Shown here piece after piece: positions 6,477 through 48,666 of a stretch of DNA of 64,000 nt. This DNA comes from Candidatus Falkowbacteria bacterium (lineage in GTDB: Bacteria; Patescibacteriota; Patescibacteriia; Patescibacteriales; UBA12465): positions 773,062 through 837,061 of the forward strand of contig CP066698.1 in assembly GCA_016432645.1 (NCBI GenBank), written 5' to 3'. The position numbers and the translations under genes are program-made. Each line of letters begins with the position of its first letter. Positions within the stretch are counted from its first letter, which is position 1. Below the pieces are notes generated by a model. That model did no database searches. It was not told the origin of the DNA and saw nothing but the letters and a program-made list of their open reading frames with translations.

Positions 6477-6480
6477 ATAT

Positions 6481-7155: not shown

Positions 7156-7158
7156 ATA

Positions 7159-7731: not shown

Positions 7732-7735
7732 AGAA

Positions 7736-8353: not shown

Positions 8354-8356
8354 ATA

Positions 8357-9601: not shown

Positions 9602-10324
9602 TTAATTTTTAATTTTAGTAATTTCTTGCGGGCTTAATTTTCGCCACTCGCCCTCCTTGATGCCCCCTAAGCCGATGCCAGCGAAGTTTGTTCTTTGTAA
9701 ATCAGCCACTTTAAATCCGAGCACGCTAAACATTCTTCTGAGTTGTCTTTTTTTACCTTCATTTAAGGTTATTACAAATAGATTATCTTGTAAATATTCG
9801 GTTTTTTTGGCTCGAGCAACACCATCGCCTTCCCCAATATCCATTCCTTTAATAAGCTCAGTACATATTTTTCGGCCTTCATTATTTTCCAGATTTTCTC
9901 CGCGGCGTGGGAATAGCCTAACGCTATAAGTTTTGTCTTTTTTTAATCTTGGATGGGATAGTTTTTGCGCGAGTTCGCCATCGTTGGTCAGTAAAATTAT
10001 ACCGCGGCTATCTTTATCCAGACGTCCGATAGAAAACATTCTTTCTTTCAAAGAAATTAATTGAAAAATATTTTGCTCCCCCGGAAAAGAACGGTTAGTA
10101 CAGGTGTATCCCATTGGCTTGTTTAATTTGATATAAATTTTTTCGGCTTTTTGGGGTAGTGGCTGACCGCGGAATGTGATTTTATCTTTTTCGGGGTCTA
10201 CTTTATCGCCTAAAATCGCTAGTTTGCCATTGATTTTAATCGAACCCATTCTAATCATTTTTTCTGCTTCGCGCCGAGAAGCTAAACCGCTTTCAGCAAT
10301 TGCTTTTTGTAAAACCATTATCAT
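9602..10324 (-). CDS. pseudouridine synthase, RsuA/RluB family
   Basis: N-terminal S4 domain (GLASRREAEKMI) and catalytic motif GRLDKDSRGIILLTNDG. ATGA overlap with the upstream gene. Confidence 0.85.
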   Translation of the reverse strand: MIMVLQKAIAESGLASRREAEKMIRMGSIKINGKLAILGDKVDPEKDKITFRGQPLPQKAEKIYIKLNKPMGYTCTNRSFPGEQNIFQLISLKERMFSIGRLDKDSRGIILLTNDGELAQKLSHPRLKKDKTYSVRLFPRRGENLENNEGRKICTELIKGMDIGEGDGVARAKKTEYLQDNLFVITLNEGKKRQLRRMFSVLGFKVADLQRTNFAGIGLGGIKEGEWRKLSPQEITKIKN

Positions 10325-11691
10325 ATTTTTTTAATTTTTGCCTCTATTGTAAGCGAACCTAACAGCGCCAAGAAGACAAAAAACATCGCCGACAGGTCAT
10401 TTTTAAAATAAGGAACATCCACTAAGCCATGAACAACAATTACCGCCATCGCTCCGAATAATCCCAAGATTAAATAATTCTTTTTCTGAAAAAACAAGTT
10501 TAAGGAGATAAATAAATATTTTCCGATCAACCAAGTGAAGGCGAGCGCTCCCAAAATTCCGAGCTCGCTCCAAAAATTAAGAAAAATATTATGCGGGTAC
10601 ATATAGATTTCTACCGGCTGCCAATATTTGGCGCGGAGTTCGGCGCTGGCTCGTAACTTGGCATCAAAATTTTCTATCTTGTCGCGGTTAAAAAAGATGC
10701 CTTCTTGATGATACGGAGCAACAGCTGTTTGATAAGCGCTCAAGCCATTGCCGGTTATAACTTTCCAGTCTTTAAGGCTCATCATTGTTTCTGTCCATTG
10801 GCGACGTCTAATTTCGCCTGATAAATCATGCAGTAATATTTTGTCGCTGGCGTAAGTTTTTAAAGTCGGAATTATAAAAATTGCGATGATAACTATCGCT
10901 GCTAAACCAATGGAGGCGATTCGTGTTTTGCGATTAGCAAAAAATAAACACAAGAAAGCGCCAGCCAAAATGCCGATAATCGCGCCCTCGGATTTGGCAA
11001 AGTAAATTGTTAAGAGGGAGATTAAGATTACTAACCCAATTATTAATTTACTAATCGTTTCTTTAGATTCCCAGCCTTTAATACTTAACAGCCAGCCGCT
11101 AAAAATTAAAACTAGCGGAGCGAGATATAAGCCTACGGCATTGGGGTATCCGAAGAAAGACACAACACGACGGGTGCTAGCGTCCGCCCAAAAAGGATTA
11201 AAAATGAAAAACCCAGTTGCTTGTTGAAATAGACCCCAGAGGGAAACCGCCGCCGCTCCTAAAAGTAAAGCTAATAATATTTTCTGTCGCCCTTTATCAC
11301 CCGGTAAAACATTCATCACTAAAATAAATAGCAAAATCGGTTCAAAAAAATAGGCTTTCCAAATACCGAGAGCGCTGGCATTGAATCCGGCAACTGCTAT
11401 GGCTACGAAAGAAATGATAATGATGGCGATTATTTCCCAACCAAAAGGATAGGGCGTCCGTTCTTGGCGGTTTTTAAGCCAAGTTTTTAGATTCGGTGCC
11501 ACATTTTTCAAAAACCAGACCGCAAAACTAATTAAAATCATCGCTTCCAGAAAGGTTAGGGGGACTCCAAGAACATTAAAGCGCAGAAGATAGGCGGGCA
11601 AGAGAGCAGTAATTAAAAAGACGGCTAAATCTAAGCGCAGAATAGCGATTGTGAGAAAAAAAAATAAGCTGGCAATTAATAAGCTGTCCAT
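10321..11691 (-). CDS. O-antigen ligase-like polytopic membrane protein
   Basis: 456 aa, more than 10 TM helices, central Wzy_C-like loop (FAKSEGAIIGILAG). Confidence 0.55.
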   Translation of the reverse strand: MDSLLIASLFFFLTIAILRLDLAVFLITALLPAYLLRFNVLGVPLTFLEAMILISFAVWFLKNVAPNLKTWLKNRQERTPYPFGWEIIAIIIISFVAIAVAGFNASALGIWKAYFFEPILLFILVMNVLPGDKGRQKILLALLLGAAAVSLWGLFQQATGFFIFNPFWADASTRRVVSFFGYPNAVGLYLAPLVLIFSGWLLSIKGWESKETISKLIIGLVILISLLTIYFAKSEGAIIGILAGAFLCLFFANRKTRIASIGLAAIVIIAIFIIPTLKTYASDKILLHDLSGEIRRRQWTETMMSLKDWKVITGNGLSAYQTAVAPYHQEGIFFNRDKIENFDAKLRASAELRAKYWQPVEIYMYPHNIFLNFWSELGILGALAFTWLIGKYLFISLNLFFQKKNYLILGLFGAMAVIVVHGLVDVPYFKNDLSAMFFVFLALLGSLTIEAKIKKI

Positions 11692-21409: not shown

Positions 21410-22468
21410 ATGGAAAGAGATGGTTTTGTTTTTGAAAGAGAAGAGTTGTTTAAGATTGCTGATTGTAAATATGGCGAAAATGCCTATCAATCGCCCGCCG
21501 CTTTGTTTTGTTTGTTTGACTCTATGAGCCGCGATCCTTTTAGTTTGGACAAATTCCGGTTAATTTCCGGTACACCGCTCAGTTACAATAATTATTGTGA
21601 TTTGGATCGCTTGCTGCAGACAATGACGCATATTGCGGCGACTTTTGATTTGAATTGCGGTTCAACCCCCTTCATCGCGGTCGGCGTTAAACACGGCAAC
21701 GCTTGCGGGGCTGGCGTTCATGATATTGATCGCCATGAAACAATTAAGCGGACAGTGACCGGTGACCCCCAAGCCTTGTTTGGTGGATTGGTAATGTTGA
21801 ATTTTGCGGTTGATGTTGAGGAGGCGGAATTGCTGCTGTCTTATAAAACAGAAGTCAGGCGACTGCTTGATGGCGTTATCGCTCCCTGGTTCAGTCCCGA
21901 AGCGATTGAACTCTTAAAGCGTAAAGGCGACAAATGTCGCTTTGTGGCTAATAGTGCCTTGGCCGAATTAGATCGCCATAGTCTGGATAAGGAGCCGATT
22001 GTTCGTTATGTGCGCGGCGGTTTTTTGGCTCAGCCGAATTATACTTACATTTTGGATATCAATGACCCTGATTTAAAAAAATACGGCGCGGTCAAAGAAA
22101 TTCAGGAGTATGATTTTATGCTCGCTAAAGCAATTTGCGATACCAGCAACTCCAACACCATCACTATCGTTAAAGACGGCCAGCTACTTGGTAACGGTGT
22201 CGGTCAACAATCGCGAATTGGCGGAGCGAAGTTAGCCATTAGGACGGCTAAAGATAGCTGTCATAATTATTCTGGCGCCGTAGCCGTAAGCGACAGCTTT
22301 TTCCCTTTCACCGACGGCGTCGAAACTTTAGTGGTCGCCGGTATCACTGCTATTCTCAGTACCAGCGGCTCGGTTAATGACCCAAAAGTTATTGATTATT
22401 GCAATCAATGTGAAGTCCCTCTTTGGCTTATCCCTGACACTAAAGGTCGGGGATTTTACAATCACTAA
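21410..22468 (+). CDS. purH: AICAR transformylase domain protein (PurH C-terminal domain only)
   Basis: Begins at the PurH motif KYGENAYQ and ends with VSDSFFPFTDG...GSVND. The roughly 200-aa MGS-like IMP cyclohydrolase domain of bifunctional PurH is absent. Confidence 0.75.
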   Translation: MERDGFVFEREELFKIADCKYGENAYQSPAALFCLFDSMSRDPFSLDKFRLISGTPLSYNNYCDLDRLLQTMTHIAATFDLNCGSTPFIAVGVKHGNACGAGVHDIDRHETIKRTVTGDPQALFGGLVMLNFAVDVEEAELLLSYKTEVRRLLDGVIAPWFSPEAIELLKRKGDKCRFVANSALAELDRHSLDKEPIVRYVRGGFLAQPNYTYILDINDPDLKKYGAVKEIQEYDFMLAKAICDTSNSNTITIVKDGQLLGNGVGQQSRIGGAKLAIRTAKDSCHNYSGAVAVSDSFFPFTDGVETLVVAGITAILSTSGSVNDPKVIDYCNQCEVPLWLIPDTKGRGFYNH

Positions 22469-28802: not shown

Positions 28803-28836
28803 AAAAAAAATCCCCGTATTTTGCGGGGATTTTTTG
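28803..28836. terminator. bidirectional terminator
   Basis: A8 - ATCCCCG-TATTTTG-CGGGGAT - T5, between convergent uvrA and the 28848 operon. Confidence 0.8.
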
Positions 28837-28847: not shown

Positions 28848-29345
28848 TTATAGATGTGCCAGTATTTTTAAATCCAGTTTCTTATAATCTGTTTCTAGGA
28901 CGGCAAAGGTAGCCTGGAAAAAGGTGCCGGAAATGTTTCCGGGATTAGCCAGGAAAGTCGGTCCTTGTTTTTCTAGCCAGGGTTTATGACTATGGCCGAA
29001 AAAAATAAAATCTAAAGCTTGCGAACCAATATTTGTTATTTTTTTGATATCTTTGTGTTGATGGCAAAATCCTAAATTTAGTCCACCTATTTTTTTGTTG
29101 CCGGCTAGGCCGTAATATTTAATATTTTTTAAGGTTTTTAAATCTGTTTCTGAAAAAGTTTCGCCGTTACCTTCAACCAAATAAATTTTTCCTGCAAAAT
29201 TATTGGCTAAAAATTTTAAAGTGTCGGCATCGCAGACATCGCCGCAACAAATCATTTCCTTTATTTTATGGTCTTTGCACCAGTCCAGGCATTTGGTCAA
29301 ATTTAAAAGATTGTCATGGATATCGGAAATAATCGCCACTAACAT
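28848..29345 (-). CDS. metallophosphoesterase (YfcE/MJ0936-like)
   Basis: MLVAIISDIHDN, CCGDV, GNGE and FGHSHKP motifs. ATG at 29345, 4 nt after the upstream stop. Confidence 0.75.
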   Translation of the reverse strand: MLVAIISDIHDNLLNLTKCLDWCKDHKIKEMICCGDVCDADTLKFLANNFAGKIYLVEGNGETFSETDLKTLKNIKYYGLAGNKKIGGLNLGFCHQHKDIKKITNIGSQALDFIFFGHSHKPWLEKQGPTFLANPGNISGTFFQATFAVLETDYKKLDLKILAHL

Positions 29346-29349
29346 ATTT

Positions 29350-29925
29350 TTATTTGCCAATTCGCATTTTAATTTCGTAGGCCATTTGCTCCAGTTTTCT
29401 TAAATGCCCGCGCGCTTGGTCGTATTTAGTTCTCAGATATCCGGTCATATCGAAATCAATCAGCTGTGCCATAATATCTTCGGCTGCTTTTTTAATTTTT
29501 GCGACTTCAGTAAACTTGCCTTTGGCGGCTTGATTAGTGGCATAACGCACCAGTTCGCCGATTAAATCGCAGATACCGCCCAAGTATGATTCATAATCAA
29601 GATTCAGGCCAGTGCTAGACTTAATTTCTTTCTTTTTAATTATCAAATAAAAAGTCTTGCCCTCTAAATATTCTTCCGCCGCCGCTTTATAAGCGCCCTC
29701 TTTTTTCAATCTTTCGGCGCCAAAGCGCTTTTCTAAATTAGCCAGCGCCTTTTCCATCTCAGTTATTTTAGCTTCGGCAGTTTTAAAATCCTGTCGCTGC
29801 AAAGAAAAAATAGTTTTTTTAGCTTCAAATAAAATACCGTTAGAGGCACTAATAATTTGTCGGCGCTCGCTTTCGTTGGCTTGGTAGTCTTTCTTCAAAT
29901 CATCTAAGAATTTTTTGTTTATCAT
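29350..29925 (-). CDS. translin family protein
   Basis: YLGGICDLIGELVRY and LRTKYDQARGHLRKLEQMAYEI match the C-terminal translin/TRAX helices. All-helical, 191 aa. Confidence 0.65.
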   Translation of the reverse strand: MINKKFLDDLKKDYQANESERRQIISASNGILFEAKKTIFSLQRQDFKTAEAKITEMEKALANLEKRFGAERLKKEGAYKAAAEEYLEGKTFYLIIKKKEIKSSTGLNLDYESYLGGICDLIGELVRYATNQAAKGKFTEVAKIKKAAEDIMAQLIDFDMTGYLRTKYDQARGHLRKLEQMAYEIKMRIGK

Positions 29926-29929
29926 ATGT

Positions 29930-32900
29930 TTAGATTACTCGGAATACTTCTTCTAAAGTTGTTTCCCCGTTTAATACTTTTAAGATGCCGTCTTGGAGCA
30001 TAGTGACCATACCGTTTTTAATAGCTTCTTGCTCAATTTCGAAGTCGGTAACTCTTTCGTTTTGAATTATAGTTTGGATGCTGGGCGACATGGTTATCGC
30101 TTCGTAAAGGCCGATTCTTCCTTTATATCCAATTTGGCCGCATTTTTCACAGCCGGCACCTTTATAAAAAGTTAATTTTTCCGGAATGGTAACCGCCGGG
30201 TTATTAATGCTGGCTAAAATATTTTTTACTTTTTCTAAATCTTCGGGACTGGCTGAAACCTCCTGCCTGCAATCAGGGCAGATGCGTCGGGCTAAGCGTT
30301 GGCCGATAGTATATTCTATGGAGTTAGCCAGCGCTTGGCGTTCAACGCCGAGGCCGACAAAGCGGGAAATTGCGCCAGCGGCGCTGTTAGCATGGATAGT
30401 GGATAAGACTAAATGGCCGGTCATCGCCGCTTCAATAGATATTTTAGCGGTTTCCGCATCTCTAATTTCACCAATCATCATGATGTTTGGATTTTGGCGC
30501 AGTAAGGATTTCATCGCGGAAACAAAAGTATAGCCGCTTGCTTCGTCAATTTGCGTCTGCATTACGCCTGGCAGCTGGTATTCAATCGGATCTTCGACGG
30601 TAATAATTTTAACATCTGGTTTGTTAAGTTGATTAAGAGCGCTGTAGAGCGTGGTAGTTTTACCGCTACCAGTCGGTCCGGTGGTGATAATAATGCCTTT
30701 GTTTTTTTTCAACGCGACTTCTAAAGAAGATAAAGTGGTGCCGGTAATTCCCAATTTTACCATATCTAAATTAGCGGCCTCGGTTGTTAATAAGCGGATA
30801 ACGATGGTTTCACCATAGCCCCCGGAAATAATTGATAAACGGCAGTCAATTTTATGGTCCGGCAGATAAACACTGAAACGGCCGTCAAAGGTGGCGCGCT
30901 TAATGTTGGTTGGAGTGCCAGCTAAAATCTTTACTTCCGATAACAACGGTAAATAACTGGTTTTTGGTAAGGAAAAAATATCATGTAGGATGCCGTCAAT
31001 GCGAAAACGAATCTTGACTTCATCAGCTGTCGGCTCAATATGAACATCACCCGCTTCTCGCAAGACAGCGAGCGTCATGGTTAACCTAATTAAATCAGAG
31101 GTAGGTACTTCTTTGGCTTTTTCTCTGATATCTAAAATATTTTTACTTAATCCTTGAGCCTCTTCCACTTGCTGCGCGCTTATCTTAACACCGCGGCCGA
31201 TGGTCTGCGAGATAACGATATCGTAGAGCTCATTAACATAATCAAAATTACCAATGACGCGATAAACCTCTTCCAGACTAGTTTCGCCGTCCAAAGCTTT
31301 TAAGACGCCATCCTGAAGCATGGTAATCATGCCATTTTCAATCGCTTGCTGGAGAATCTTGAAAGAAGGCGCTTGCTCTACCGTTAATTGGCGAATTTTG
31401 TCGTCTAGGGTAAAAATTTCAAAAATACCGGAGCGCCCCTTATAGCCGGTAAAGTTGCACTGTTCACAGCCGGCGCCCGCTTGAAAAACATTTGGTAATT
31501 TAGCGGGGATGCTGATTCCGGTTTTTGGCGAGATGACCGCCAATATTTTATTTACCAACTCTCCTTCGTCGGCGCTTAAAGTTTTTTCTTGGCGGCAATG
31601 GATACATAAGCGCCTGACTAGACGCTGTCCGATAACTGCATTGATTGAGGGCGCTAAAAAATAGGGCTTTACTCCAATATCGATTAAGCGCGGGATTACT
31701 CCGGCGGCGTCATTAGTATGTAGAGTTGATAACACAATATGGCCGGTAAGCGAGGCCTGCACAGAAATTTCTGCGGTTTCTAAGTCTCTAATTTCACCAA
31801 CCATGACTACGTTAGGATCTTGGCGCAAGATTGATCTTAAGCCTTCAGAAAAACTGAAGCCGTGTTTGCTATCCACCTGGCTTTGATTGATGCCTGATAA
31901 TTGATATTCAATCGGATCTTCCAGAGTAATTATTTTAGTGCCTGATTGGTTAAGTTGATTAATGACAGCATATAAAGTTGTGGTTTTCCCGCTGCCGGTT
32001 GGCCCGGTTGTCAAAATTAAACCGTTCGGTTTAGCAATTTCTCTTTTTAAAATCGGCAAGACTTCCGGCCGGACGCCTAAATTTTCAATATCCAAAGAGG
32101 TCATGGCGGAATCTAAAAGGCGCATCACCACGCTCTCGCCAAAAGCTGTCGGTAGAAAAGAACAGCGGACGTCAACACGACGCTTCTCTAAATAAATAGT
32201 ATAGCGTCCGTCTTGCGGTTTATTTTCAATATTAATTTTAACGCGCGCCAATATCTTTAAGCGGGAAATAATTTTATGCCATTTTTCACGGCTGATAACG
32301 GCCGCTTCTTGCAAAACGCCATCCAATCTCATTCTGATAACTACGCCGTTATCTTCAGCTTCAATATGAACATCACTGGCGCCGACTTTAATAGCGGTTG
32401 CTAAAATTAAGGTGATGACATCAGTGATATTTACGTCATTTATTTTATCATTGAGATTTTTATAACTAGAAATGTCATTTTTAAATTTTTCTAATTGTTC
32501 GGGGCTGATTTCTACGCCGCTTTCATATTTTTTAACTTTTGGCAGCGAACGGTAAGCCTCTAAGGCCGCCTTTAAGCTATTAGGAGAAATAAGGTATAAT
32601 CTGGTGTCGGCAAAATATTGTTCGCTTAAACGCTTTGTTTCTTCCAGGACTTCAGCGCTTGGATTTAAGCAGCCGACTCTAATATTCTTGCCATCATAAA
32701 AAAAACAAATCGCGTTCAATTCTTTGGCGCGATCTTCCTGCATTAAGACCAAGGCCTCGGGGCTAATCGGAAAGCCATAAAGATTAACGTAATCAAGGCC
32801 GAGCTCCTCGGCGTCTCTTTGAGTTTTATGTTCCAGTTCTTTAAGTTTTATTTCCTCTTGCTTCCTCGCAAAAAGACCGGCGACGCTTTCTTCGTCGCCT

Positions 32901-32941
32901 GTCGGATTTAATAAATTTTCGATTGATTCCACCTTTCCCAT
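29930..32941 (-). CDS. tandem double GspE/PilB-type secretion/pilus assembly ATPase
   Basis: N-terminal T2SSE_N-like domain, then two full ATPase modules. Each has Walker A TGPTGSGKTTT, GEIRD, a His box and CxxC...CxxC. Confidence 0.85.
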   Translation of the reverse strand: MGKVESIENLLNPTGDEESVAGLFARKQEEIKLKELEHKTQRDAEELGLDYVNLYGFPISPEALVLMQEDRAKELNAICFFYDGKNIRVGCLNPSAEVLEETKRLSEQYFADTRLYLISPNSLKAALEAYRSLPKVKKYESGVEISPEQLEKFKNDISSYKNLNDKINDVNITDVITLILATAIKVGASDVHIEAEDNGVVIRMRLDGVLQEAAVISREKWHKIISRLKILARVKINIENKPQDGRYTIYLEKRRVDVRCSFLPTAFGESVVMRLLDSAMTSLDIENLGVRPEVLPILKREIAKPNGLILTTGPTGSGKTTTLYAVINQLNQSGTKIITLEDPIEYQLSGINQSQVDSKHGFSFSEGLRSILRQDPNVVMVGEIRDLETAEISVQASLTGHIVLSTLHTNDAAGVIPRLIDIGVKPYFLAPSINAVIGQRLVRRLCIHCRQEKTLSADEGELVNKILAVISPKTGISIPAKLPNVFQAGAGCEQCNFTGYKGRSGIFEIFTLDDKIRQLTVEQAPSFKILQQAIENGMITMLQDGVLKALDGETSLEEVYRVIGNFDYVNELYDIVISQTIGRGVKISAQQVEEAQGLSKNILDIREKAKEVPTSDLIRLTMTLAVLREAGDVHIEPTADEVKIRFRIDGILHDIFSLPKTSYLPLLSEVKILAGTPTNIKRATFDGRFSVYLPDHKIDCRLSIISGGYGETIVIRLLTTEAANLDMVKLGITGTTLSSLEVALKKNKGIIITTGPTGSGKTTTLYSALNQLNKPDVKIITVEDPIEYQLPGVMQTQIDEASGYTFVSAMKSLLRQNPNIMMIGEIRDAETAKISIEAAMTGHLVLSTIHANSAAGAISRFVGLGVERQALANSIEYTIGQRLARRICPDCRQEVSASPEDLEKVKNILASINNPAVTIPEKLTFYKGAGCEKCGQIGYKGRIGLYEAITMSPSIQTIIQNERVTDFEIEQEAIKNGMVTMLQDGILKVLNGETTLEEVFRVI

Positions 32942-32944
32942 AGT

Positions 32945-33925
32945 TTAAGCTTTTTTCTTGAACATTCTTTCCAATTTAGCTTCGCCTCGGCCCTCTTCTA
33001 ATTCTAAGAATAAATCAGTCCAGGCAGACACTTGGAAAGTTGTTAGAATCGCTCCAGTAAATAAAATTAGAGCGAGGACAATAAACATCAATAAAACTAA
33101 CAGCCAGGCTAAGCCGTAATTGGCGGCAAAAACGAGGTATGGGAAAATAAAAATTGAAATAATCACTAGCAACAGGAAGCCAGCCAAGAAGCTGATAATA
33201 AAGAGAATAATCCCCATTTCAACGCTCATCAGCCAGTTGTTGCCAAATAATTTGATAGCTTTTTTCAAAGAAGCGCAGAACGGCTCCTCATTCAAAACAT
33301 TGTAGGCAATGGCGTATTTAATAATTAAGGACAAGGAAACGGCGATTGGAGTAAAGATTATGAAAGACAATACATAAACCCCAGCTAGGTATACAGAGCC
33401 GTTGACGGCTAAAAATAGTAGAGGAACAGACATTATAAATAAAGCCAGCCCCACTAACAGTTTGATTAAAATATTCAGTCCGAGTACTGGCCAGAAATGG
33501 AGGTGACCTTTAGCTAGATTTTCTCTAATATTTAGAATCGGTGTTTTTTTCTTGGCAACTATTAATTTTTTAGTGCTAACTACTAGCGCTGCCTGTGAGG
33601 ATATGGATAACCAGACAAAAGTCACGATTAAAGTCAGGGTTATAATTAAAACAGTTAAAGTATTGATGATTGTAAAAATATCATAGGAAAATAAATTCCA
33701 AAAACCGGCACAAAAAGAGCCAAAGGCACTTAGGACAACAATTAAGCCGTTAATATGGGAATAGGAATTTTCTAGAGCGCTTGATTGTAGACCATTAGCC
33801 AAGACTTGATATTCAAAAGAGCCGCTGGCGGCCGCGATTGAAGCAAATAACCCAAATAACCAAAGATATTTGTTCTTCCAGGCGATGTTCCAAGATTGTT
33901 TTAAGATTGAGCGATAAGAAAACAT
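32945..33925 (-). CDS. polytopic membrane protein, first gene of the double-ATPase operon
   Basis: 326 aa with about 7-8 TM helices. Its stop lies 3 nt before the ATPase start. No family recognised (not PilC-like). Confidence 0.55.
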   Translation of the reverse strand: MFSYRSILKQSWNIAWKNKYLWLFGLFASIAAASGSFEYQVLANGLQSSALENSYSHINGLIVVLSAFGSFCAGFWNLFSYDIFTIINTLTVLIITLTLIVTFVWLSISSQAALVVSTKKLIVAKKKTPILNIRENLAKGHLHFWPVLGLNILIKLLVGLALFIMSVPLLFLAVNGSVYLAGVYVLSFIIFTPIAVSLSLIIKYAIAYNVLNEEPFCASLKKAIKLFGNNWLMSVEMGIILFIISFLAGFLLLVIISIFIFPYLVFAANYGLAWLLVLLMFIVLALILFTGAILTTFQVSAWTDLFLELEEGRGEAKLERMFKKKA

Positions 33926-34000
33926 AAAATTAAAAGCTAGCTTTGTAGTCCAAACCAGGCGATAAGCGCCGGATTGAAAAACTTAATAAAGTCTGTTAGT

Positions 34001-34030
34001 ATTATAACATAATTCTAAGATTATTACCAA
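34001..34030 (-). promoter_or_regulatory. candidate promoter of the 33925..28848 operon
   Basis: Minus strand reads TTGGTA, 18-nt spacer, TGtTATAAT extended -10. Confidence 0.5.
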
Positions 34031-37645: not shown

Positions 37646-38497
37646 ATGTTTAAAAGAGATAAAGCCGCCGCGCGCTGCCGAAAAAATAAATATTTTTTAA
37701 TTATTATCGGGCTTATTTTGTTGTCCGGTATTTTTTTATTTATTTTTTTAGCAACCAGAAATTGCTTGCGTGTTTCTTTTATGGATGTCGGCCAAGGCGA
37801 CGCTTCTCTAATTCAAACGCCAACTGGCAAAAACATTTTAATTGATGGTGGACCAGATAATTTAGTATTACATCGTTTGGGAGAAGCTCTGCCTTTTTAC
37901 ATTCGTCGCTTGGATTATATTATCATCAGCCATTTTCATGATGATCATATAATAGGATTGGTAGAAATTTTAAAACGTTATCGGGTCGATAAAATTATTT
38001 TTGTTTCTCCGGATATTTCTTCGCCGGCAGTTGATGCCTTGCAAAGAGAAATTAAAAAATTAAATTTATCGGTTATCAATATCATCGCTAGTGCTAATTT
38101 GCGGCTGGATAATTATTGTTCCTTATTTTTTATCAATCCTGCCAGCTTAAACATAAAAGATAATGCCAATAATTCTTTAGTTGCCAAATTGGATTGCGGG
38201 AATAATAAATTTTTATTTGCCGGTGATAACGAGTCGGGGGCGGAGGCTGCTCTAGTAAAAAGCGATTTTGATTTACGCGCCGATATTTTTAAAGCTTCGC
38301 ATCACGGCTCTAAAACTTCCAATATGGAAAATTTTTTAGAGGCTGTTTCGCCGCAAAAGATAATAATTTCAGTCGGAAAAACTAATCGCTTCGGTCATCC
38401 TAGCCCGGAAGTGTTAGATAGAGTACTTGGCCGAGGGATAGATATTTGGCGGACTGATATCCAAGGAACTAGTCTTATTTTAGCGGAAATTAGGTAG
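37646..38497 (+). CDS. ComEC/Rec2-type metallo-beta-lactamase domain protein (MBL domain only, one TM anchor)
   Basis: VSFMDVGQGDASLIQTP...ILIDGG, HFHDDH, and SHHGS...RFGHP, as in the C-terminal domain of ComEC. Confidence 0.7.
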   Translation: MFKRDKAAARCRKNKYFLIIIGLILLSGIFLFIFLATRNCLRVSFMDVGQGDASLIQTPTGKNILIDGGPDNLVLHRLGEALPFYIRRLDYIIISHFHDDHIIGLVEILKRYRVDKIIFVSPDISSPAVDALQREIKKLNLSVINIIASANLRLDNYCSLFFINPASLNIKDNANNSLVAKLDCGNNKFLFAGDNESGAEAALVKSDFDLRADIFKASHHGSKTSNMENFLEAVSPQKIIISVGKTNRFGHPSPEVLDRVLGRGIDIWRTDIQGTSLILAEIR

Positions 38498-39803: not shown

Positions 39804-40448
39804 ATGATTATCACTTGGCAAGGACATTCCTGCTTTAAAATTCAAGACAAAATCGGCCCCGAAGGCGTCACAGTTGTGACTGACCCTTTTGGGAAAAGCA
39901 CCGGTTTAAAAGTTCCTAATTTTGAAGCCGATATTATAACAATTTCTCATGATCACGATGATCATAATAATGCCGGCGCTTTGCGCGGCAATCCGTTTAT
40001 TATCGATTGCGCCGGGGAATATGATTTCAAAGGCGTTTTAGTGGAAGGAATTGACTCTTTTCATGATGATAAAAAGGGGTCTGAGCGTGGAAGTAATATT
40101 ATATATAGAATGGAAGTCGATGACGTCTCCATTGCTCATTTGGGAGATTTGGGCGGTCCGCTCGATAGCACCCAGTTAGAAAAATTAGTTGGAACCGATA
40201 TTTTATTAATTCCGGTGGGCGGTAAATATACGCTTGACGCCAAAGCGGCCGTGGAAGTAATCTCGCAAATTGAGCCCCGGATTGTAATCCCGATGCATTA
40301 TAAAACGCCGGATTTAAAAATGGATATTGACCCGGTTGATAAGTTTATCAAAGAGTTGGGCCTGAAGCCGACTTATGAAGAAAAATTAAAAATTTCCAAG
40401 AAAGATCTTCCGCAAGAAGATATGGAACTAGTAATATTAAGTATTTAA
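39804..40448 (+). CDS. MBL-fold metallo-hydrolase (UPF0173-like)
   Basis: MIITWQGHSCFKIQ N-terminus and SHDHDDH metal motif. Confidence 0.75.
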   Translation: MIITWQGHSCFKIQDKIGPEGVTVVTDPFGKSTGLKVPNFEADIITISHDHDDHNNAGALRGNPFIIDCAGEYDFKGVLVEGIDSFHDDKKGSERGSNIIYRMEVDDVSIAHLGDLGGPLDSTQLEKLVGTDILLIPVGGKYTLDAKAAVEVISQIEPRIVIPMHYKTPDLKMDIDPVDKFIKELGLKPTYEEKLKISKKDLPQEDMELVILSI

Positions 40449-40452
40449 AATT

Positions 40453-41055
40453 ATGATTAATCCTAAAAAAGAAAGAACATTTGTGATTCTAAAACCAGAT
40501 GCTGTTCAGCGCGGATTGGTTGGCGAAACAATTAAGAGAATCGAAAATACCGGCTTAAAATTGGTAGCTATGAAAATGATCATGGCCACTGAAGATCAAC
40601 TGTGGAAGCACTATGCTAAGGATGATGCTTGGTTTTTAAAGAAAGGCGAAAGAACGGTTGAAGAAAGAAAAGCGGCCGGAATGCCGATTGAAAAGGAAGC
40701 GATTGAATATGGCAAAGACATTATTCGCGCTCTGGTTAAATTTATGAGCTGTGGTCCAATTGTCCCGATGATTTGGGAAGGAAATCAAGCTGTCGGTATT
40801 GTTAAAAAAATTGTGGGCGCCACTGAGCCTCTATCTTCTGATGGCGGGACTATTCGCGGCGACTATACCCTGGATTCCTATGAGCTTGCCAGTTTGGATG
40901 AAAGAGCAGTTCGTAATTTAGTCCACTGTTCTGACCCAGTTGAAGATGCGGCGCGAGAAATCCCGCTTTGGTTTAGCGAAGAAGAAATTTTGAAATATAG
41001 CTTGATTGCCGAGAAAATTCTATATGACGTCAATTTAGACGGCATTAAAGAATAG
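40453..41055 (+). CDS. ndk: nucleoside-diphosphate kinase (long form)
   Basis: ERTFVILKPDAVQRGL, GTIRGDY and NLVHCSD (catalytic His). Confidence 0.9.
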   Translation: MINPKKERTFVILKPDAVQRGLVGETIKRIENTGLKLVAMKMIMATEDQLWKHYAKDDAWFLKKGERTVEERKAAGMPIEKEAIEYGKDIIRALVKFMSCGPIVPMIWEGNQAVGIVKKIVGATEPLSSDGGTIRGDYTLDSYELASLDERAVRNLVHCSDPVEDAAREIPLWFSEEEILKYSLIAEKILYDVNLDGIKE

Positions 41056-41064
41056 CTTAATAAT

Positions 41065-41568
41065 ATGACCGAGGAAGAGCGTCGCAAAAAAATAATACTA
41101 GTAAAAATTTTAGTGGGCTCGTTGGCGGTTGTGATTTTTTTGTTTTGGTTTTTGAATTTGAAGAATGTTTTTGAGATGAATAAATTGCGTTCTACCAAAA
41201 GCCCCGAAGCCGCTAAATTAAACGAACTTAAAAAAGAAATCGGCGAATCTTTAAATGAAGCGACGGAAAAAATTAAAGATCAGGAGCAGCAAGCGAAACT
41301 AAAAGAAGATGTTAACGGGCTTTTAAATGGAGTAATTGCCGAAGTTAATAAAAATGCTTCCTCTAGCGCCGTTACCTCTACTGAAATAATTAATAATGCC
41401 TCCACCACGGCAGCCACTAGTTCGTTGCCGGAAATAGCTACCTCGACCTCGCCAAACAAAATCAATAATAATTGTCCGTCTTATATAGACTGTATGCCGT
41501 CTATCGGCGAATCAAAACCCTGCCAAATACCGGTAGGTTGCGAAGGAATTACACAAATAGCTTATTAG
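41065..41568 (+). CDS. membrane-anchored hypothetical protein with Cys-rich C-terminus
   Basis: One TM helix, Ser/Thr-rich linker and a CPSYIDC...C...C tail. Confidence 0.5.
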
Positions 41569-41578
41569 TTTTATCTTT

Positions 41579-44110
41579 ATGCCTAAAAAAGAGCTTGAAC
41601 CACAAGACAAAGAGCGCTTGGAAAACAATTCAGATCCGGAAAATACCAATGTCCGTAAAAAAACCGAATATGGCTTAGTGGAAGAACAGCCGATTGTTGA
41701 TGAAATGAGCAAGTCTTATTTGGACTATGCCATGAGCGTTATTGTTTCTCGCGCTTTGCCTGATGTTCGCGACGGTTTAAAACCGGTACATCGCCGTATT
41801 TTGTATGCCATGTGGAATATCGGTTTGCGAGCCGGCGGTAAATTTCGTAAATCAGCGACGGTTGTCGGTGAGGTTTTAGGTAAATACCATCCTCACGGCG
41901 ATTCGGCAGTTTATGATTCAATGGTGAGAATGGCGCAAGATTTTGCGATGCGTTACCCGCTCGTTCGCGGCCAAGGAAACTTCGGCTCTATGGATGGCGA
42001 TAATGCGGCCGCCATGCGTTATACTGAAGCTAAATTGTCGGCCATTTCCGAGGAGATGATGTTTGATATTGAGAAAGAAACCGTTAACTTTTTGCCTAAT
42101 TTTGATGGCAGCCATAAAGAACCACAAGTTTTACCGGCTAAACTTCCTAACCTATTATTAAATGGAACCATGGGAATCGCGGTTGGCATGGCCACCAATA
42201 TTCCTCCTCATAATTTGCGAGAACTGGCAGCGGCGATTGAACACTTAATTGCTAATCCTGATGCCAGCATTGAAGAGTTAGCCCAGTTTGTTAAAGGTCC
42301 TGATTTCCCAACCGGCGGCATTATTTATAATAAACAAGATATTTTAAATGCTTACGCGACCGGAAAGGGCGGCGTGGTTTTGCGTGGTAAGGCTGAGATT
42401 GAAGAAATGAAAAGCGGCGGCTTCCAAATTATTATTACCGAAGTTCCTTATCAAGTTAATAAGGCTGATTTGGTGGAAAAAATTGCCGACCTGGTTAGAG
42501 ATAAAAAAATTGAAGGCATTAAGGCTTTGCGTGATGAATCCGATAAAGACGGTGTCCGAGTAGTAATTGAACTTAAGAAAGATTCTTATCCTAAGAAGAT
42601 TTTAAACACCTTGTACAAGCATACTAGTTTGCAGACTACTTTCCACTTCAACATGCTGGCTCTGGTTGACGGTATCCAGCCTAAGGTTTTAACTTTGAAA
42701 ATGATTCTGGAAGAATATATTAAGCACCGTGAAGAAGTCGTGCGCCGTCGCACCCAATTTGATTTAAACAAAGCTTTAGACAGGGCCCATATTTTAGAAG
42801 GCTTAATGATTGCTTTAAAAAATATTGATGAAGTTATTAAAACGATTAAAGCTTCTAAAGATAAAGAAGTTGCCAAACTTAGTTTGATTAAGAAATTTAA
42901 ATTATCCGAAAGACAAGCGGTCGCCATTTTGGAAATGCGTTTGCAGAGCTTAGCTAATCTGGAGCAACAACGGATTGAAAACGAACTCAAAGAAAAATTA
43001 AAACTGATTAAAGAATTAGAAAGTATTTTGAAATCAGTCGCCAAAATCAGGGGAATCGTTAATAGCGAACTTAAAGAGTTGACGGAAAAATATGGCGATG
43101 AACGAAAAACCGCGGTCGTCCCTCATGCCGTTGGAGAATTCAGTATGGAAGATTTAGTTCCTAATGAAGAGACGGTTGTGATGATGACTCGCGATGGTTA
43201 CATCAAGCGCTTAGAACCAGATACTTTTAAAGTTCAGGCTCGTGGCGGCAAAGGTGTTATGGGACTCACAACTAAAGAAGAAGATACCGTTGAGTTCATG
43301 TTTACCAGCTTAACCCATAATGATGTTTTATTCTTTACAACTAAGGGCCGCGCTTTCCAATTGAAAGTTTACGAGATTCCGCAAGCTTCCCGAATTGCTA
43401 AAGGAACGCCGGTGGTTAATTTTTTGCAGCTTATCGGCGGTGAGCAGATATCCTCAATTTTACCTCTAGATAAAGCAGTCTTTAGCAAATATTTATTTTT
43501 TGCTACTCAAAAAGGCCTGGTCAAAAAAGTAGAACTAGAGGCTTTTAAGAACGTTAGACGTTCGGGCTTGATTGCTATTAAAATTAAAGATGATGATAAA
43601 TTAATCTGGGTTAAGCCTACTTCCGGCTCCGATCATATTCAACTGGTAACTTCCCAGGGGCAAGCCATTAGATTTAAAGAAAGCGATGTCCGCGATATGG
43701 GACGAGGAGCAGCCGGAGTGCTTGGTATTAGATTGCATAAAAATGATACTTTAATTGGCATGGGAGTTGCCAAGACTGATAAAGAAAGAAAACGAAATTA
43801 TCAAATTCTCACCATCATGGCTAATGGTTTTGGCAAGCGGACCGAATTTGGCGCTTATAAAATCCAGGGCCGCGGCGGCAGCGGAATTAAGACTGCTAAA
43901 GTTACTTCCAAAACCGGGGCAATTACCAACGCCTTCTTGGTCAATGCTGATTCTATGGAAGACAAGGATTTAATTATCATTTCCGATCACGGCCAAGTAA
44001 TCAGAACACCGTTTAAATCAGTAAATGTTTTAGGCCGCGATACTCAGGGCGTTAGAATTATGCGCTTTAAGGAGGATAGCGACCATGTCGCGGGTGTGAC
44101 CTGGGTCTAA
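41579..44110 (+). CDS. gyrA: DNA gyrase subunit A
   Basis: Catalytic region AAMRYTE, QRDR-like [11 protein letters not shown], and C-terminal beta-pinwheel repeats. Confidence 0.95.
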
Positions 44111-44138
44111 TTATTTGCTGGCGGTTTAACTTAAAAAT

Positions 44139-44585
44139 ATGAAAAAGTATTTTCAAGAATTCAAAGCCTTTGCCGTTAAAGGCAACGTTGTTGATTTAGC
44201 GGTTGCCGTTATTATTGGTGGCGCCTTTGGAAAAATCGTTTCCTCTCTCGTATCTGACGTCGTGATGCCGCTTATTGGCGTAATTGCCGGCGGTTTAGAT
44301 TTTACTAGTTGGAAAATTATTTTAAAGCAAGCAGTAATTGGTTCTGATGGCGTTTTAGCTTCTCCGGCCGTAACTATGAATATCGGGGTCTTTGTGCAAA
44401 ATATTTTTGACTTTTTAATCATCGCTCTTTCCATATTTTTTATGGTTAAGGTTTTAGGCAGGATTAAGAAGCGTTTAATAAACGAAGAAGAAGATAAAAA
44501 GAAAGAAGAAAAATCGGCGCCATTAACGAAAGATCAGGAATTATTAGTGGAAATTAGAGATTTATTGAAGAATAAACCAGAATAA
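44139..44585 (+). CDS. mscL: large-conductance mechanosensitive channel
   Basis: EFKAFAVKGNVVDLAVAVIIGGAFGKIVSSLVSDVVMP signature. Confidence 0.9.
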   Translation: MKKYFQEFKAFAVKGNVVDLAVAVIIGGAFGKIVSSLVSDVVMPLIGVIAGGLDFTSWKIILKQAVIGSDGVLASPAVTMNIGVFVQNIFDFLIIALSIFFMVKVLGRIKKRLINEEEDKKKEEKSAPLTKDQELLVEIRDLLKNKPE

Positions 44586-46537: not shown

Positions 46538-47408
46538 TGATAACTACAATCAGAAAATATCAACTCGGGACATCTTAGACCCACTGGTTTTTTTTGATTT
46601 ATTTGATTTTCCCCTAACTGCTTATGAAATTTGGCATTATTTAGATTGTCGCGGTTCTTTGGCGGCGCTGACATCGTCTTTAGAAATGATAGATTCAAAA
46701 ATTTTAGGCCAAAAAAATGGTTTTTATTTTTTAAGCGGCCGTGAGAATATCGTCGAAACCAGAAAAATAAGATATAATTATTCTTGTCATAAAATAAAAA
46801 TTGCTAAGCGGTTTGCCCGCGCCTTTGCCTTCTCGCCGTTTGTAAAAACTATCGCCATTGCTAATTTTATCGGTGATCATAATTTACGCCAAGAAGGCGA
46901 TATTGATTTCTTTATTATCACTAGTGCCAGGCGGATTTGGTTAAGTCGTTTATTTTGTGCAGGGCTAGCTAAGTTGCTGAACAGCCGCCCGACTGCTAAG
47001 AAAAAACAAGATAAAATTTGTTTGAGTTTTTATATCTCTGAAGAACATCTGGATATTCGTGATTTAGCTTTAGGCGATAACGACCCCTATTTTTATTATT
47101 GGTTGCGTGGGTTGTTGCCAATTTATGATTCTAATAATTTTTATCAGCAGTTTTTAGCCGCCAACAATCTAAGCACTGATAAATTTACCGCGGTTTCTAT
47201 TCAGATATCTTGGCTGGACGCTCTGGAAAAAATAGCTAAAAAGTGGCAGTTAAAAATTATGTCTCCGGGCTTAAAGAAGGCCATGAATAATTCGGACGGA
47301 GTTGTTATTTCGGATAGCGTTCTAAAATTATATCTTAGCGATAGACGGCGTCTATTTGCTGAAAAGTTTAAGTCTAAATATGATGAACTTCTTAAAAAGA
47401 TTAACTGA
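46530..47408 (+). CDS. hypothetical protein (possible nucleotidyltransferase-like GDIDFF motif)
   Basis: 292-aa ORF that overlaps the rmuC stop by 8 nt. No family confidently recognised. Confidence 0.5.
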   Translation: MLSDNYNQKISTRDILDPLVFFDLFDFPLTAYEIWHYLDCRGSLAALTSSLEMIDSKILGQKNGFYFLSGRENIVETRKIRYNYSCHKIKIAKRFARAFAFSPFVKTIAIANFIGDHNLRQEGDIDFFIITSARRIWLSRLFCAGLAKLLNSRPTAKKKQDKICLSFYISEEHLDIRDLALGDNDPYFYYWLRGLLPIYDSNNFYQQFLAANNLSTDKFTAVSIQISWLDALEKIAKKWQLKIMSPGLKKAMNNSDGVVISDSVLKLYLSDRRRLFAEKFKSKYDELLKKIN

Positions 47409-48666
47409 GTTTTTTTTATTAGTTTTTGTTTTTATTCTGCCCTGGCAAACAAAGCTGATTCTTCGGCCGGCACTTAATAATTTTAATGATATCAGTTTGT
47501 ATGCCAGCCATTTGGTTTTATTGCTGGCCCTGATTTGTTTTTTTGTTTATAAGATTTGGACCAGGGATTCCGGCCGTAAAACTCCACCGCTGTGGTATTT
47601 TTTGGGAGTTCTAGAAATTGTAATGGTAGTTTCTTTTTTCTATGCGCCTGATAGGCTCTTAGCCGCTTTCCATTACTTATTATTTTTGGGCGGCCTGGGG
47701 CTGTTTTATTTAGTTAGAGAGGGAATTAATCGCGCCGCTTATGAAGACAGCTGTTTGAATCGGACGAGGATTATCTATGTTTTTTTGGCGAGCGCTTTCT
47801 TGCAAGCTTCTTTGGGAATTTATCAATTTCTCAGTCAAAAATCTTTTGCTTTTAAATATTTAGGCTTGGCCGCTCATGATCCGGAAGTAATGGGAACGGC
47901 GGTCATTGAAACGGCTTCCGGGCGCTGGTTGCGGGCTTATGGCGGCCTCGACCATCCTAATATTTTGGGCGGAGTGCTGGCTATTTCTTTAATTCTGTCA
48001 GCCTATCTATTGGCTCGAAAAAAAATAATTAATTCCAATATTCAAATTTGGGGCTTGATTATGCTGTTTTTCAGTTATTTTTTTGCGTTGATTGCCATGT
48101 TTTTTTCTTTTTCGCGCGCCGCTTGGCTGGCCTATGCAATCGGTATGCTGATTTTAGCCGCGGTTATTTATAAACGGGAAGATCGCTGGGTAGCGAAAAG
48201 ATTTTTAGCGTTAATCTTTTTTTCCGGCGCATTATTGATGATTGCGGCTCTGCCTTATCGCGAGTTAGCGTTAACCCGTTTTGCGGCGACTTCGCGCTTA
48301 GAACAGATTTCTATTTCAGAACGTGAAGATTACCTTTCCCAGTCTGGAGAAATAATAAAAAACCACCCCTGGTTTGGAGTGGGCAATGCTAATTATGTAA
48401 AATATCTGGAAAAAAATTCAGCTATCAGTAATTTTAATTATTATCAACCGGTTCATAATGCTTTTCTCTTGGTTTTTGCTGAAAATGGCGTCTTTGCTTT
48501 TTTGGCCGTGATTTTATTTTTAATTTTCTTGGCGTTTAGCCCGCGCCGGCAAAATTTTGCCTTCTCAATTATTGCCGCTCTGGTGATTATGATGATGTTT
48601 GATCACTGGCTCCTCTCTCTGCCTTTTGGAATTTTATTCTTCTTCTTGATTCTCGGCTTGATTTGA
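47380..48666 (+). CDS. O-antigen ligase family membrane protein
   Basis: More than 10 TM helices and Wzy_C-type loop FSFSRAAWLAYAIG. ATG at 47380 preferred over TTG at 47356. Confidence 0.65.
   Translation: MMNFLKRLTEFFLLVFVFILPWQTKLILRPALNNFNDISLYASHLVLLLALICFFVYKIWTRDSGRKTPPLWYFLGVLEIVMVVSFFYAPDRLLAAFHYLLFLGGLGLFYLVREGINRAAYEDSCLNRTRIIYVFLASAFLQASLGIYQFLSQKSFAFKYLGLAAHDPEVMGTAVIETASGRWLRAYGGLDHPNILGGVLAISLILSAYLLARKKIINSNIQIWGLIMLFFSYFFALIAMFFSFSRAAWLAYAIGMLILAAVIYKREDRWVAKRFLALIFFSGALLMIAALPYRELALTRFAATSRLEQISISEREDYLSQSGEIIKNHPWFGVGNANYVKYLEKNSAISNFNYYQPVHNAFLLVFAENGVFAFLAVILFLIFLAFSPRRQNFAFSIIAALVIMMMFDHWLLSLPFGILFFFLILGLI

Follow-up and report, generated by a model that had tools for sequence, protein, structure and literature searches.

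Four adjoining minus-strand genes of Candidatus Falkowbacteria, encoding a membrane protein (MEM), a tandem PilB/GspE ATPase, a TRAX-like protein, and a YfcE/MJ0936 phosphodiesterase (MPE), appear from the signals that bound them and from their conservation to form a real promoter-to-terminator operon, specific to the lineage of this bacterium and its relatives. We read the operon as a composite transcription unit and not as one machine, with a probability of about one half, because tight gaps are found genome-wide, TRAX occurs in unrelated contexts, unrelated genes can lie between TRAX and MPE, and many CPR genomes have canonical pilus clusters. The tandem motor is a new variant, and its linkage to TRAX is previously undescribed; we found neither an earlier description of a tandem PilB nor any association of translin with type IV pili in the literature. 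Here, we report the analysis of the operon within a 64-kb window (the whole stretch of DNA studied) and in related genomes.

Operon layout and boundaries

The four open reading frames encode 326, 1003, 191, and 165 aa in the order given above. The first-pass annotation had described gaps of 3, 4, and 4 nt on the minus strand, a promoter in front, and a strong bidirectional terminator behind, and all three hold: the gaps follow from the open reading frame coordinates (ATG start for the last gene), and both ends of the block carry recognizable signals.

The promoter (34001..34030, minus strand; sigma-70-type, TTGGTA - 18 nt - TG-n-TATAAT) lies in the divergent spacer between MEM and ArgRS and matches the consensus at 10 of 12 positions, with an extended -10. 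Both hexamers are invariant in the orthologous spacers of 11 genomes, and the flanking spacer sequence has diverged. A promoter scan returned 14 promoter-like sites in the operon region and 14.1 in shuffled sequence, so the scan by itself is no proof. The 5′ leader (33926..34000, minus strand) has about 30 nucleotides that are invariant in those 11 genomes, ACTAACAGACTTTATTAAGTTTTTCAATC, followed by a hairpin of variable sequence with compensatory changes at four pairs and a weak consensus folding energy (−2.5 kcal/mol). At the other end, the bidirectional intrinsic terminator (28805..28835; AAAAAATCCCCG-CAAAATA-CGGGGATTTTTT) has a 12-bp stem with T-runs on either side and is common to the convergent uvrA gene. 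The base composition of the operon is unremarkable. A terminator-like hairpin at 32899..32879, within the ATPase coding region, was taken as a chance match.

Short gaps of this kind are the norm for the genome. Among 44 same-strand neighbor pairs in the window, 48% are separated by 10 nt or less (median gap, 11 nt), and unrelated genes are packed as tightly at 5979-9124 (GNAT, Cu-oxidase_4, His_Phos_1, and Inositol_P) and at 39804-44585 (MBL, NDK, a hypothetical gene, GyrA, and MscL). Spacing of 3 to 4 nt was accordingly rejected as a sign of functional coupling.

Tandem PilB/GspE-type ATPase

The 1003-aa ATPase (29930..32941, minus strand) matched Pfam T2SSE in two stretches (757 bits; cut-off, 24.9). 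Module 1 (aa 1-565; 31247..32941, minus strand) consists of MshEN/N1 and then N2 and C-terminal domains of the PilB/GspE type, and module 2 (aa 566-1003; 29930..31246, minus strand) is a second N2 and C-terminal domain fused in frame. The two modules are 46% identical to each other, with the MshEN domain (residues 47-132; 26.9 bits; cut-off, 23.1) in module 1 only. Module 1 carries Walker A (313), Asp box (338), Walker B (378), His box (400), and two CxxC motifs; all motifs are likewise intact in module 2 (Walker A at 755), and the tetracysteine zinc motif is present in both, as checked in the window protein. The four nucleotide-binding motifs of both modules are conserved in 88 tandem orthologues. 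The best solved relatives were GspE (4pht), PilB (3jc8 and 5tsg), and PilF (E about 1e-100), with PilT much farther.

Judged by its domains and motifs, the protein is a predicted extension-type (PilB/GspE/PilF-like) motor in which duplication and fusion have doubled the N2 and C-terminal part. Both modules are apparently active, and the tandem fusion appears to have arisen once. The whole protein passes the PilB, GspE, and ComGA equivalog cut-offs because the two module scores sum; singly, modules 1 and 2 fall below those of TIGR02538 PilB (475 and 403 versus 676), TIGR02533 GspE (488 and 428 versus 630), and NF041000 ComGA (246 and 232 versus 300). T2SSE, an N-terminal MshEN/N1, Walker A, Asp box, Walker B, His box, and the tetracysteine motif are common to this ATPase and to PilB, GspE, PilF, and ComGA, from all of which it differs in having two full N2 and C-terminal modules in one chain. 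A further difference, from the ATPase loci of type IV pili and type II secretion systems, is the non-PilC membrane protein encoded upstream.

Membrane protein

MEM (32945..33925, minus strand) is a predicted all-helical polytopic membrane protein according to its open reading frame, orthologue profiles, and an AF2 model (pLDDT, 80.5; modeled from database homologue sequences). The initial calls of a polytopic membrane protein and a tandem PilB/GspE ATPase thus both stand. The window protein had no match above threshold in Pfam or NCBIfam, and DUF7544 was matched by 13 of 37 orthologues. A profile search returned 428 homologues, all from Patescibacteria or Falkowbacteria sources among the matches listed, which suggests a family restricted to this lineage.

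The fold search placed CTL1/PNS1 as the best PDB folds, weakly (Foldseek probability, 0.97 to 0.99; TM-score, 0.34 to 0.42). Profile and model together relate MEM weakly and distantly to DUF7544, GPDPase_memb, and choline-transporter-like proteins (SLC44 and PNS1), with which it would share the all-helical polytopic fold; the DUF7544 and GPDPase_memb profile matches come from orthologues and are weak, the window protein itself lying below every Pfam threshold. The likeness to choline-transporter-like proteins is too weak for function to be transferred. A role as a PilC-like platform was considered and rejected, since neither the window protein nor 37 orthologues gave a T2SSF match and the fold search gave choline-transporter-like proteins and no PilC.

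TRAX-like nuclease

The 191-aa TRAX-like protein (29350..29925, minus strand) is a predicted nuclease of the prokaryotic C3PO type and has no signal peptide. It matched Pfam Translin (PF01997) over residues 20-188 (73.8 bits; cut-off, 25.9), and its best solved relatives were Nanoarchaeum equitans C3PO (5jr9; E 1e-14) and AfTRAX. In the 5jr9 alignment, E85, E88, D120, and E124 align with N. equitans Glu82, Glu85, Asp117, and Glu121 (numbering of PMC5100593), and N. equitans Arg124 is conserved as Arg127. The tetrad is invariant in 28 orthologues, and a pattern search found both E-x-x-E and D-x-x-G-E in most of 150 distant TRAX representatives. By these alignments, the protein retains the full two-metal catalytic tetrad known from archaeal C3PO, and it is expected to work as a homo-octamer that cuts single-stranded nucleic acid in an Mg/Mn-dependent manner.

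The prokaryotic C3POs of N. equitans (NEQ131/NeTrax) and Archaeoglobus fulgidus (AfTrax) are likewise single translin-superfamily proteins of about 190 aa with a Glu-Glu-Asp-Glu tetrad. The protein described here differs from them in being bacterial (Patescibacteria) and in its predicted place on one transcript with a pilus-type motor. Chloroflexi is the sole bacterial phylum named for prokaryotic C3PO in PMC5100593, where the N. equitans protein is reported to cut single-stranded DNA as well as RNA.

Phosphodiesterase

MPE is a predicted metallophosphodiesterase of the YfcE/MJ0936 family (28848..29345, minus strand; 165 aa from ATG). The longest version of the open reading frame, from TTG 29360, would share 11 nt with TRAX; the ATG is favored because orthologue tblastn matches start a few nucleotides past the TRAX stop. 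Matches were to Metallophos_2 (84 bits) and TIGR00040 YfcE (69.5 bits; cut-off, 56.25), and with these profile scores and that of TRAX both family calls, translin and phosphoesterase, are sustained. The best solved relative was MJ0936 (2ahd; E 4e-10), to which MPE aligns with conserved metal-ligand motif positions (D-x-H, GD, GN, H, and GH-x-H). Size (about 165 aa), a TIGR00040 score above cut-off, and the metal-ligand positions are common to MPE and MJ0936/YfcE; the third motif reads GNGE in MPE, GNND in MJ0936, and GNCD in Escherichia coli YfcE. Unlike MJ0936 and YfcE, MPE adjoins TRAX, tightly only in Falkowbacteria.

Pilus, competence, and defense genes

No PilC, PilM/N/O, PilT, PilD, or secretin family member was found among the open reading frames scanned in the window, which also has no prepilin motif, and none of them turned up in the adjoining ~10 kb on the right (~74 kb in all, of a 977-kb genome). 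The absence of nearby pilC, pilM, pilin, and secretin genes, noted at the outset, is therefore confirmed over this range.

To our knowledge, Gram-positive competence is the only well-known system in which a PilB-family motor is combined with the uptake and breakdown of nucleic acid. The operon resembles it (ComGA, ComEA/ComEC/ComFA, and a strand-degrading nuclease) in the theme of motor plus nuclease. It differs in encoding no ComEA, ComEC channel, or ComFA, in ATPase modules that score below the ComGA cut-off, and in a nuclease that is a predicted cytoplasmic TRAX. A stand-alone ComEC C-terminal-type MBL domain with a transmembrane anchor is encoded 3.7 kb away on the strand opposite the operon (37646..38497), and its synteny, like that of the tRNA synthetase genes, is confined to Falkowbacteria. 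Open reading frames for AICARFT and IMP cyclohydrolase-like proteins are also present in the window, which suggests that purine synthesis is encoded in at least its final steps. In many CPR genomes, PilB, PilT, PilC, and PilM/N/O lie together in a canonical cluster, and DNA scavenging by way of type IV pili and ComEC has been proposed for these bacteria (PMC6744442).

With its ATPase, nuclease, phosphoesterase, and membrane effector, the operon bears a superficial likeness to many defense systems, and an anti-phage island was considered on that ground. It is highly improbable and was rejected: among PADLOC models, only generic P-loop ones matched the ATPase and none matched the other three proteins, the block is inherited vertically and keeps its place on the chromosome (TRAX relatives in 268 species genomes, 80 checked), its base composition does not stand out, and its flanks are housekeeping genes.

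Conservation and synteny

The first-pass annotation had proposed searching for the gene neighborhood in relatives. Of the 268 species genomes with relatives of the operon TRAX gene, 80 were retrieved and examined for the block, and sister-group loci were collected by a metagenome scan with a sister-group translin alignment. Essentially every one of these 80 Falkowbacteria-type genomes contains the block, and for 77 related species the search found the four genes co-localized in about 75. The junctions are retained in 76/77 (ATPase-TRAX), 71/71 (MEM-ATPase), and 74/76 (TRAX-MPE) of the Falkowbacteria-type loci, fractions which, like those of the sister group below, overstate the number of evolutionary events because the loci share a phylogeny and are non-independent. 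Within these genomes, the flanking GlyRS, ArgRS, UvrA, and PLD genes, on the opposite strand, are as syntenic as the operon itself; Falkowbacteria synteny is therefore non-discriminating and was rejected as a sign of coupling.

In the sister group, the surviving junctions are ATPase-TRAX (50/56) and MEM-ATPase (28/36, with MEM undetected upstream of the ATPase in the other 8), and the decayed ones are ArgRS-MEM (0/20), UvrA-PLD (0/7), MPE-UvrA (2/37), and TRAX-MPE (11/62), again as fractions of non-independent loci. MPE there drifts 1 to 6 kb from TRAX, mostly on the same strand and within 6 kb downstream, with a permease and a PGA_cap-like gene separating the two; FtsH lies co-directionally upstream, and the ATPase is usually single, not tandem. 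The ATPase-TRAX junction outlasts all others in the window, persisting to about 55 to 60% TRAX identity and 27 to 40% MEM identity. Such persistence exceeds simple inertia and could reflect a functional link, and the survival of the MEM-ATPase-TRAX core at deeper divergence makes such a link possible.

TRAX is also widespread in Patescibacteria without a neighboring motor ATPase, its conserved neighbors being clade-specific. It follows YceG, stands between a P-type ATPase and GT2, lies within the mur/fts cell-wall cluster, or comes after rpsL/rpsG.

The step once taken from this operon to a dedicated nucleic-acid uptake or processing module is consequently unsupported: its gaps are ordinary for the genome, its flanks are equally syntenic in Falkowbacteria, TRAX and MPE are seldom adjacent in the sister group, TRAX has other neighbors and no ATPase in other Patescibacteria clades, and MEM is not of the PilC type.

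A looser association is possible, if doubtful. The motor would drive a type IV filament or competence-type uptake, and TRAX and MPE would degrade imported single strands to nucleotides in a symbiont with limited biosynthesis, the proteins being linked by regulation or metabolism and not by a physical complex. The retention of ATPase-TRAX in both groups while other junctions decay argues for it, as do the position of MPE, which in most loci of the sister group lies downstream on the same strand at no more than 6 kb, the cleavage of single-stranded DNA by N. equitans C3PO (PMC5100593), the DNA scavenging proposed for CPR bacteria (PMC6744442), and the membrane-anchored ComEC-type domain nearby. 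However, TRAX is common in Patescibacteria without an adjoining ATPase, MPE is loosely linked, the ComEC-like gene is no more widely syntenic than the tRNA synthetase genes, and AICARFT and IMP cyclohydrolase-like proteins are encoded in the window.

A stronger claim, which we consider unlikely, is that the tandem ATPase docks on MEM and moves nucleic acid across the membrane as a pilus-independent translocation and processing apparatus, with the C3PO-type nuclease and often the MJ0936-type enzyme as dedicated, physically coupled subunits. The lack of PilC, PilM, or pilin genes within ~74 kb is consistent with it, as are the confinement of MEM to the lineage of the linkage, its position beside the ATPase in 71/71 and 28/36 loci, and module scores under the PilB and GspE equivalog cut-offs. 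Against this, the ATPase architecture is canonical for PilB/GspE, including MshEN/N1 and the zinc motif; MEM has no large cytoplasmic domain, a weak transporter fold match, and sister-group loci in which it is undetected; and TRAX and MPE are separable. We know of no precedent for a pilus-independent machine of such composition.

Proposed function and significance

Under the preferred reading of a composite transcription unit, a polycistronic mRNA would be translated by stop-start coupling. Three tandem ATPase chains would form a pseudo-hexameric motor powering the assembly of a type IV filament, its PilC, PilM, and pilin parts presumably encoded elsewhere, and the lineage-specific MEM is a possible partner or anchor of that motor. 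TRAX would close into a homo-oligomeric barrel, a cytoplasmic nuclease for single-stranded RNA or DNA, and the MJ0936-type enzyme may trim its phosphodiester products. Selection would have kept chiefly the MEM-ATPase-TRAX order, most simply because the downstream genes rely on the lone upstream promoter. Joint expression of pilus function and nucleic-acid degradation is compatible with the salvage of imported DNA, though nothing observed calls for it.

If the genes share only a promoter, the operon is a clean example of streamlined genomes making stable operons from unrelated housekeeping genes, and it warns that in CPR genomes tight gene spacing is a poor guide to function. A pilus-independent apparatus, if true, would mean that CPR symbionts acquire nucleotides by a new route. 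The covalently doubled PilB is a natural "linked-dimer" of a hexameric secretion ATPase and could help to show how neighboring subunits alternate. CPR/Patescibacteria are believed to rely on type IV pili and on scavenged DNA, and the motor-TRAX linkage, conserved in hundreds of species, offers a testable lead to the fate of nucleic acid once internalized and to whether bacterial C3PO acts on imported DNA or RNA.

In this Candidatus Falkowbacteria (Patescibacteria/CPR) MAG, the operon lies on the minus strand and comprises, from its 5′ end, a 326-aa polytopic membrane protein (MEM; 32945..33925), a 1003-aa ATPase (29930..32941), a 191-aa translin-family protein (TRAX; 29350..29925), and a metallophosphodiesterase (MPE; 28848..29360; 170 aa from TTG or, with the ATG at 29345, 165 aa). 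The ATG start of MPE is supported because tblastn matches to orthologues begin a few nucleotides past the TRAX stop codon; with it, consecutive genes lie 3, 4, and 4 nt apart, in full agreement with the first-pass annotation. A bidirectional terminator hairpin (AAAAAATCCCCG-CAAAATA-CGGGGATTTTTT; 12-bp stem, T-runs on both strands) separates MPE from the convergent uvrA, and the strong terminator previously placed there is thus confirmed. A sequence scan found a promoter-like site (TTGGTA-18-TATAAT, extended −10 TG) in the 139-nt divergent spacer ahead of ArgRS. Such a match proves nothing by itself, since promoter-like sites were no more numerous than in shuffled sequence (14 versus 14.1 ± 3.3); however, both hexamers and ~30 nt of leader were invariant amid otherwise varying spacer in an alignment of 11 genomes, a phylogenetic footprint that bears out the promoter proposed in front of the operon. 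Within this promoter-leader stretch (33926..34030, minus strand), these 11 genomes also carry, 3′ of the invariant leader, a hairpin of varying sequence with some compensatory changes and weak consensus folding energy, which may be a regulatory or stabilizing 5′ leader element. Within its 5′ end, the ATPase reading frame contains a terminator-like hairpin (32879..32899, minus strand; 7-bp stem with 6 GC pairs, followed by a T-run) that is probably fortuitous. That the four genes form a single, conserved transcription unit is well supported.

TRAX passed Pfam Translin at 73.8 bits, and its best solved relatives were Nanoarchaeum equitans C3PO (NeC3PO; 5jr9, E 1e-14) and Archaeoglobus AfTRAX. 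Residues E85, E88, D120, and E124, invariant in 28 TRAX orthologues, align with the NeC3PO catalytic residues Glu82, Glu85, Asp117, and Glu121 (PMC5100593), and most of 150 distant cluster representatives contain both E-x-x-E and D-x-x-G-E by pattern search. The prediction that TRAX is a catalytically competent bacterial C3PO is well supported by these alignments. Chloroflexi was the sole bacterial phylum named with translin-superfamily genes in the NeC3PO paper (PMC5100593); Patescibacteria proteins already carry the JGI/IMG label “predicted translin family RNA/ssDNA-binding protein.” MPE passed TIGR00040 (YfcE family; 69.5 bits, cut-off 56.25) and aligns with MJ0936 with conservation of the metal-ligand motif positions, so that both the translin and the YfcE-type calls of the first-pass annotation hold on profile search and a predicted MJ0936-type phosphodiesterase is well supported. 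MEM had no match in the family profile search; among 37 orthologues, 13 weakly matched DUF7544, four Choline_transpo, and one GPDPase_memb. A confident structure model (pLDDT 80.5) is an all-helical bundle with weak likeness in the PDB to choline-transporter-like proteins only, and a PilC identity was ruled out, the fold search having given no PilC resemblance. The MEM family is small (428 matches), and all source names shown were Patescibacteria or Falkowbacteria.

The ATPase matched Pfam T2SSE in two stretches, as the earlier tandem PilB/GspE call implied, and residues 47-132 form an MshEN/N1 domain. Its halves are 46% identical, and each keeps Walker A, Asp box, Walker B, His box, and two CxxC pairs. 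In 88 tandem orthologues, both modules retain the four nucleotide-binding motifs. That the tandem motor has its two modules intact is a well-supported prediction. In seven Falkowbacteria tandem ATPases, GPTGAGKT replaces GPTGSGKT in the module 1 Walker A. The nearest solved structures were the extension motors GspE (4pht), PilB (3jc8 and 5tsg), and PilF, with PilT far more distant. Taken singly, neither module reached the NCBIfam equivalog cut-off of PilB, GspE, or ComGA; by these profiles, the protein belongs to the superfamily yet is the equivalog of no named member. In a sister group beyond Falkowbacteria-type genomes (retrieved loci L085-L168), 37 loci encode a single ATPase (~570 aa) and 11 a tandem one. 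In a neighbor-joining tree, all of the N-modules group together as sister to the single ATPases, and all of the C-modules fall in a separate clade, which argues that the fusion arose once.

Genes in this genome are generally closely packed: of 44 pairs of adjoining genes on the same strand, 48% are ≤10 nt apart (median gap, 11 nt). As an internal control, unrelated genes are packed at ≤10 nt, one pair overlapping by 56 nt, in two runs: GNAT, Cu-oxidase_4, His_Phos_1, and Inositol_P (5979..9124, minus strand) and MBL, NDK, hypothetical, and GyrA (39804..44585, plus strand), the latter followed by MscL after 28 nt. The 3- to 4-nt operon gaps that drew notice at first pass are therefore not evidence of functional coupling. 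The neighbors are housekeeping genes (UvrA, PLD, ArgRS, GlyRS, GyrA, NDK, and others). Pfam scans found no PilC, PilM/N/O, PilT, PilD, or secretin family in ORFs across the 64-kb window or a further ~10 kb to its right, in keeping with the reported absence of pilus genes nearby, and no prepilin cleavage motif was found in the window.

Other genes of the window were also noted. The 283-aa product of 37646..38497 (plus strand) bears a TM helix at its N terminus, matches solely the ComEC/Rec2 C-terminal MBL (nuclease) domain (TIGR00361 positions 417-663, 122 bits), and is, by that match, a stand-alone ComEC-type MBL domain; its gene adjoins GlyRS in 49 Falkowbacteria loci and is not syntenic in the sister group. 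CPR ComEC proteins have been reported without a fused MBL domain (PMC6744442). RelA/SpoT is directly followed (~61750..64000, plus strand, on into L169:1-9906) by surface-type proteins of very large size (887, 1903, and >1223 aa) that carry T4SS_pilin (PF18895), Big_5, and TIG domains; the PF18895 domain is type IV secretion pilin-like, not a type IV pilus pilin. There are two Wzy_C/O-antigen-ligase-like membrane proteins (10321..11691, minus strand; 47356..48666, plus strand), and such enzymes glycosylate pilins in some bacteria. An AICARFT/IMPCHase-like gene (21410..22468, plus strand) and an IMP cyclohydrolase-like gene (PF07826; 22556..23317, minus strand) temper the argument that this organism must scavenge nucleotides, since it appears to encode at least the final steps of purine synthesis.

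When one genome per species was scanned, 268 species genomes proved to have TRAX relatives. The best 80 of these (TRAX identity, 61 to 97%) were examined, and nearly all carry the full four-gene block: MEM|ATPase was kept in 71/71, ATPase|TRAX in 76/77 (ATPase always tandem), and TRAX|MPE in 74/76. Unrelated junctions were equally kept (GlyRS|ArgRS, 53/56; ArgRS|MEM, 58/61; UvrA|PLD, 63/66), so this set cannot split operon selection from general synteny. In the sister group (80 loci from metagenomes plus a few from MAGs; TRAX ~55 to 60% identical to that of the window), the flanks are altered (ArgRS|MEM, 0/20; UvrA|PLD, 0/7; MPE|UvrA, 2/37), often with FtsH upstream in the same direction, and the core is kept (ATPase|TRAX, 50/56; MEM|ATPase, 28/36), though the compared loci are not independent samples. 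That the MEM|ATPase|TRAX core outlasts all other junctions of the window’s arrangement is well supported. The rare ATPase|TRAX breaks involve inserted mobile/defense-type genes, namely, a Fic protein with an Lcl_C-domain protein (L118:5312-7816) and a Type ISP restriction-modification enzyme (L168:4885-7971). The operon itself was PADLOC negative, and a defense system is highly improbable. TRAX and MPE adjoin in just 11/62 sister-group loci, MPE usually lying 1 to 6 kb farther downstream, with a Trp_Tyr-type permease and/or PGA_cap-like gene in between; a recent, loose link of MPE to the other genes is well supported. With this loose link and tight gaps as the genome rule, the dedicated nucleic-acid uptake or processing machine proposed earlier is not supported.

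In more distant Patescibacteria, neither ATPase nor phosphodiesterase was found near TRAX, which has other conserved neighbors, each pairing confined to one clade: YceG|TRAX (L083, L172), P-type ATPase|TRAX|GT2 (L084, L171), M50|TRAX|NUDIX (L082), or rpsL and rpsG ahead of TRAX (L081), with L087 differing again. The L082 and L084 loci both lie inside the mur/fts cluster. Where TRAX does not adjoin the ATPase, single cases have another nucleic-acid or nucleotide enzyme beside it (staphylococcal-nuclease homologue, L162:602-1009; NUDIX hydrolase, L082:7582-8001). As neighbors differ clade by clade, TRAX, a widespread gene, embeds stably in whatever array it reaches.

All operon components belong to known families; the tandem PilB/GspE-type ATPase and the motor-translin linkage are undescribed as far as found. 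Our literature search returned no description of either and, in the library searched, no paper with both “translin” and “type IV pilus,” in keeping with the earlier remark that no described system of such composition was known.

We favor a composite operon rather than one machine (probability, about 0.5). A real regulatory or metabolic link in nucleic-acid salvage among the operon genes is a doubtful alternative, and a physical machine working independently of a pilus is improbable. For the composite operon, persistence of the core could stem from dependence of the downstream genes on a single promoter in a compact genome; such embedding does happen, as evidenced by the conserved, clade-specific pairings of TRAX with YceG or P-type ATPase. 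Equally possibly, the core may be kept by selection for coexpression, a plausible case being one in which pilus or competence activity would be coupled to the breakdown of imported single strands.
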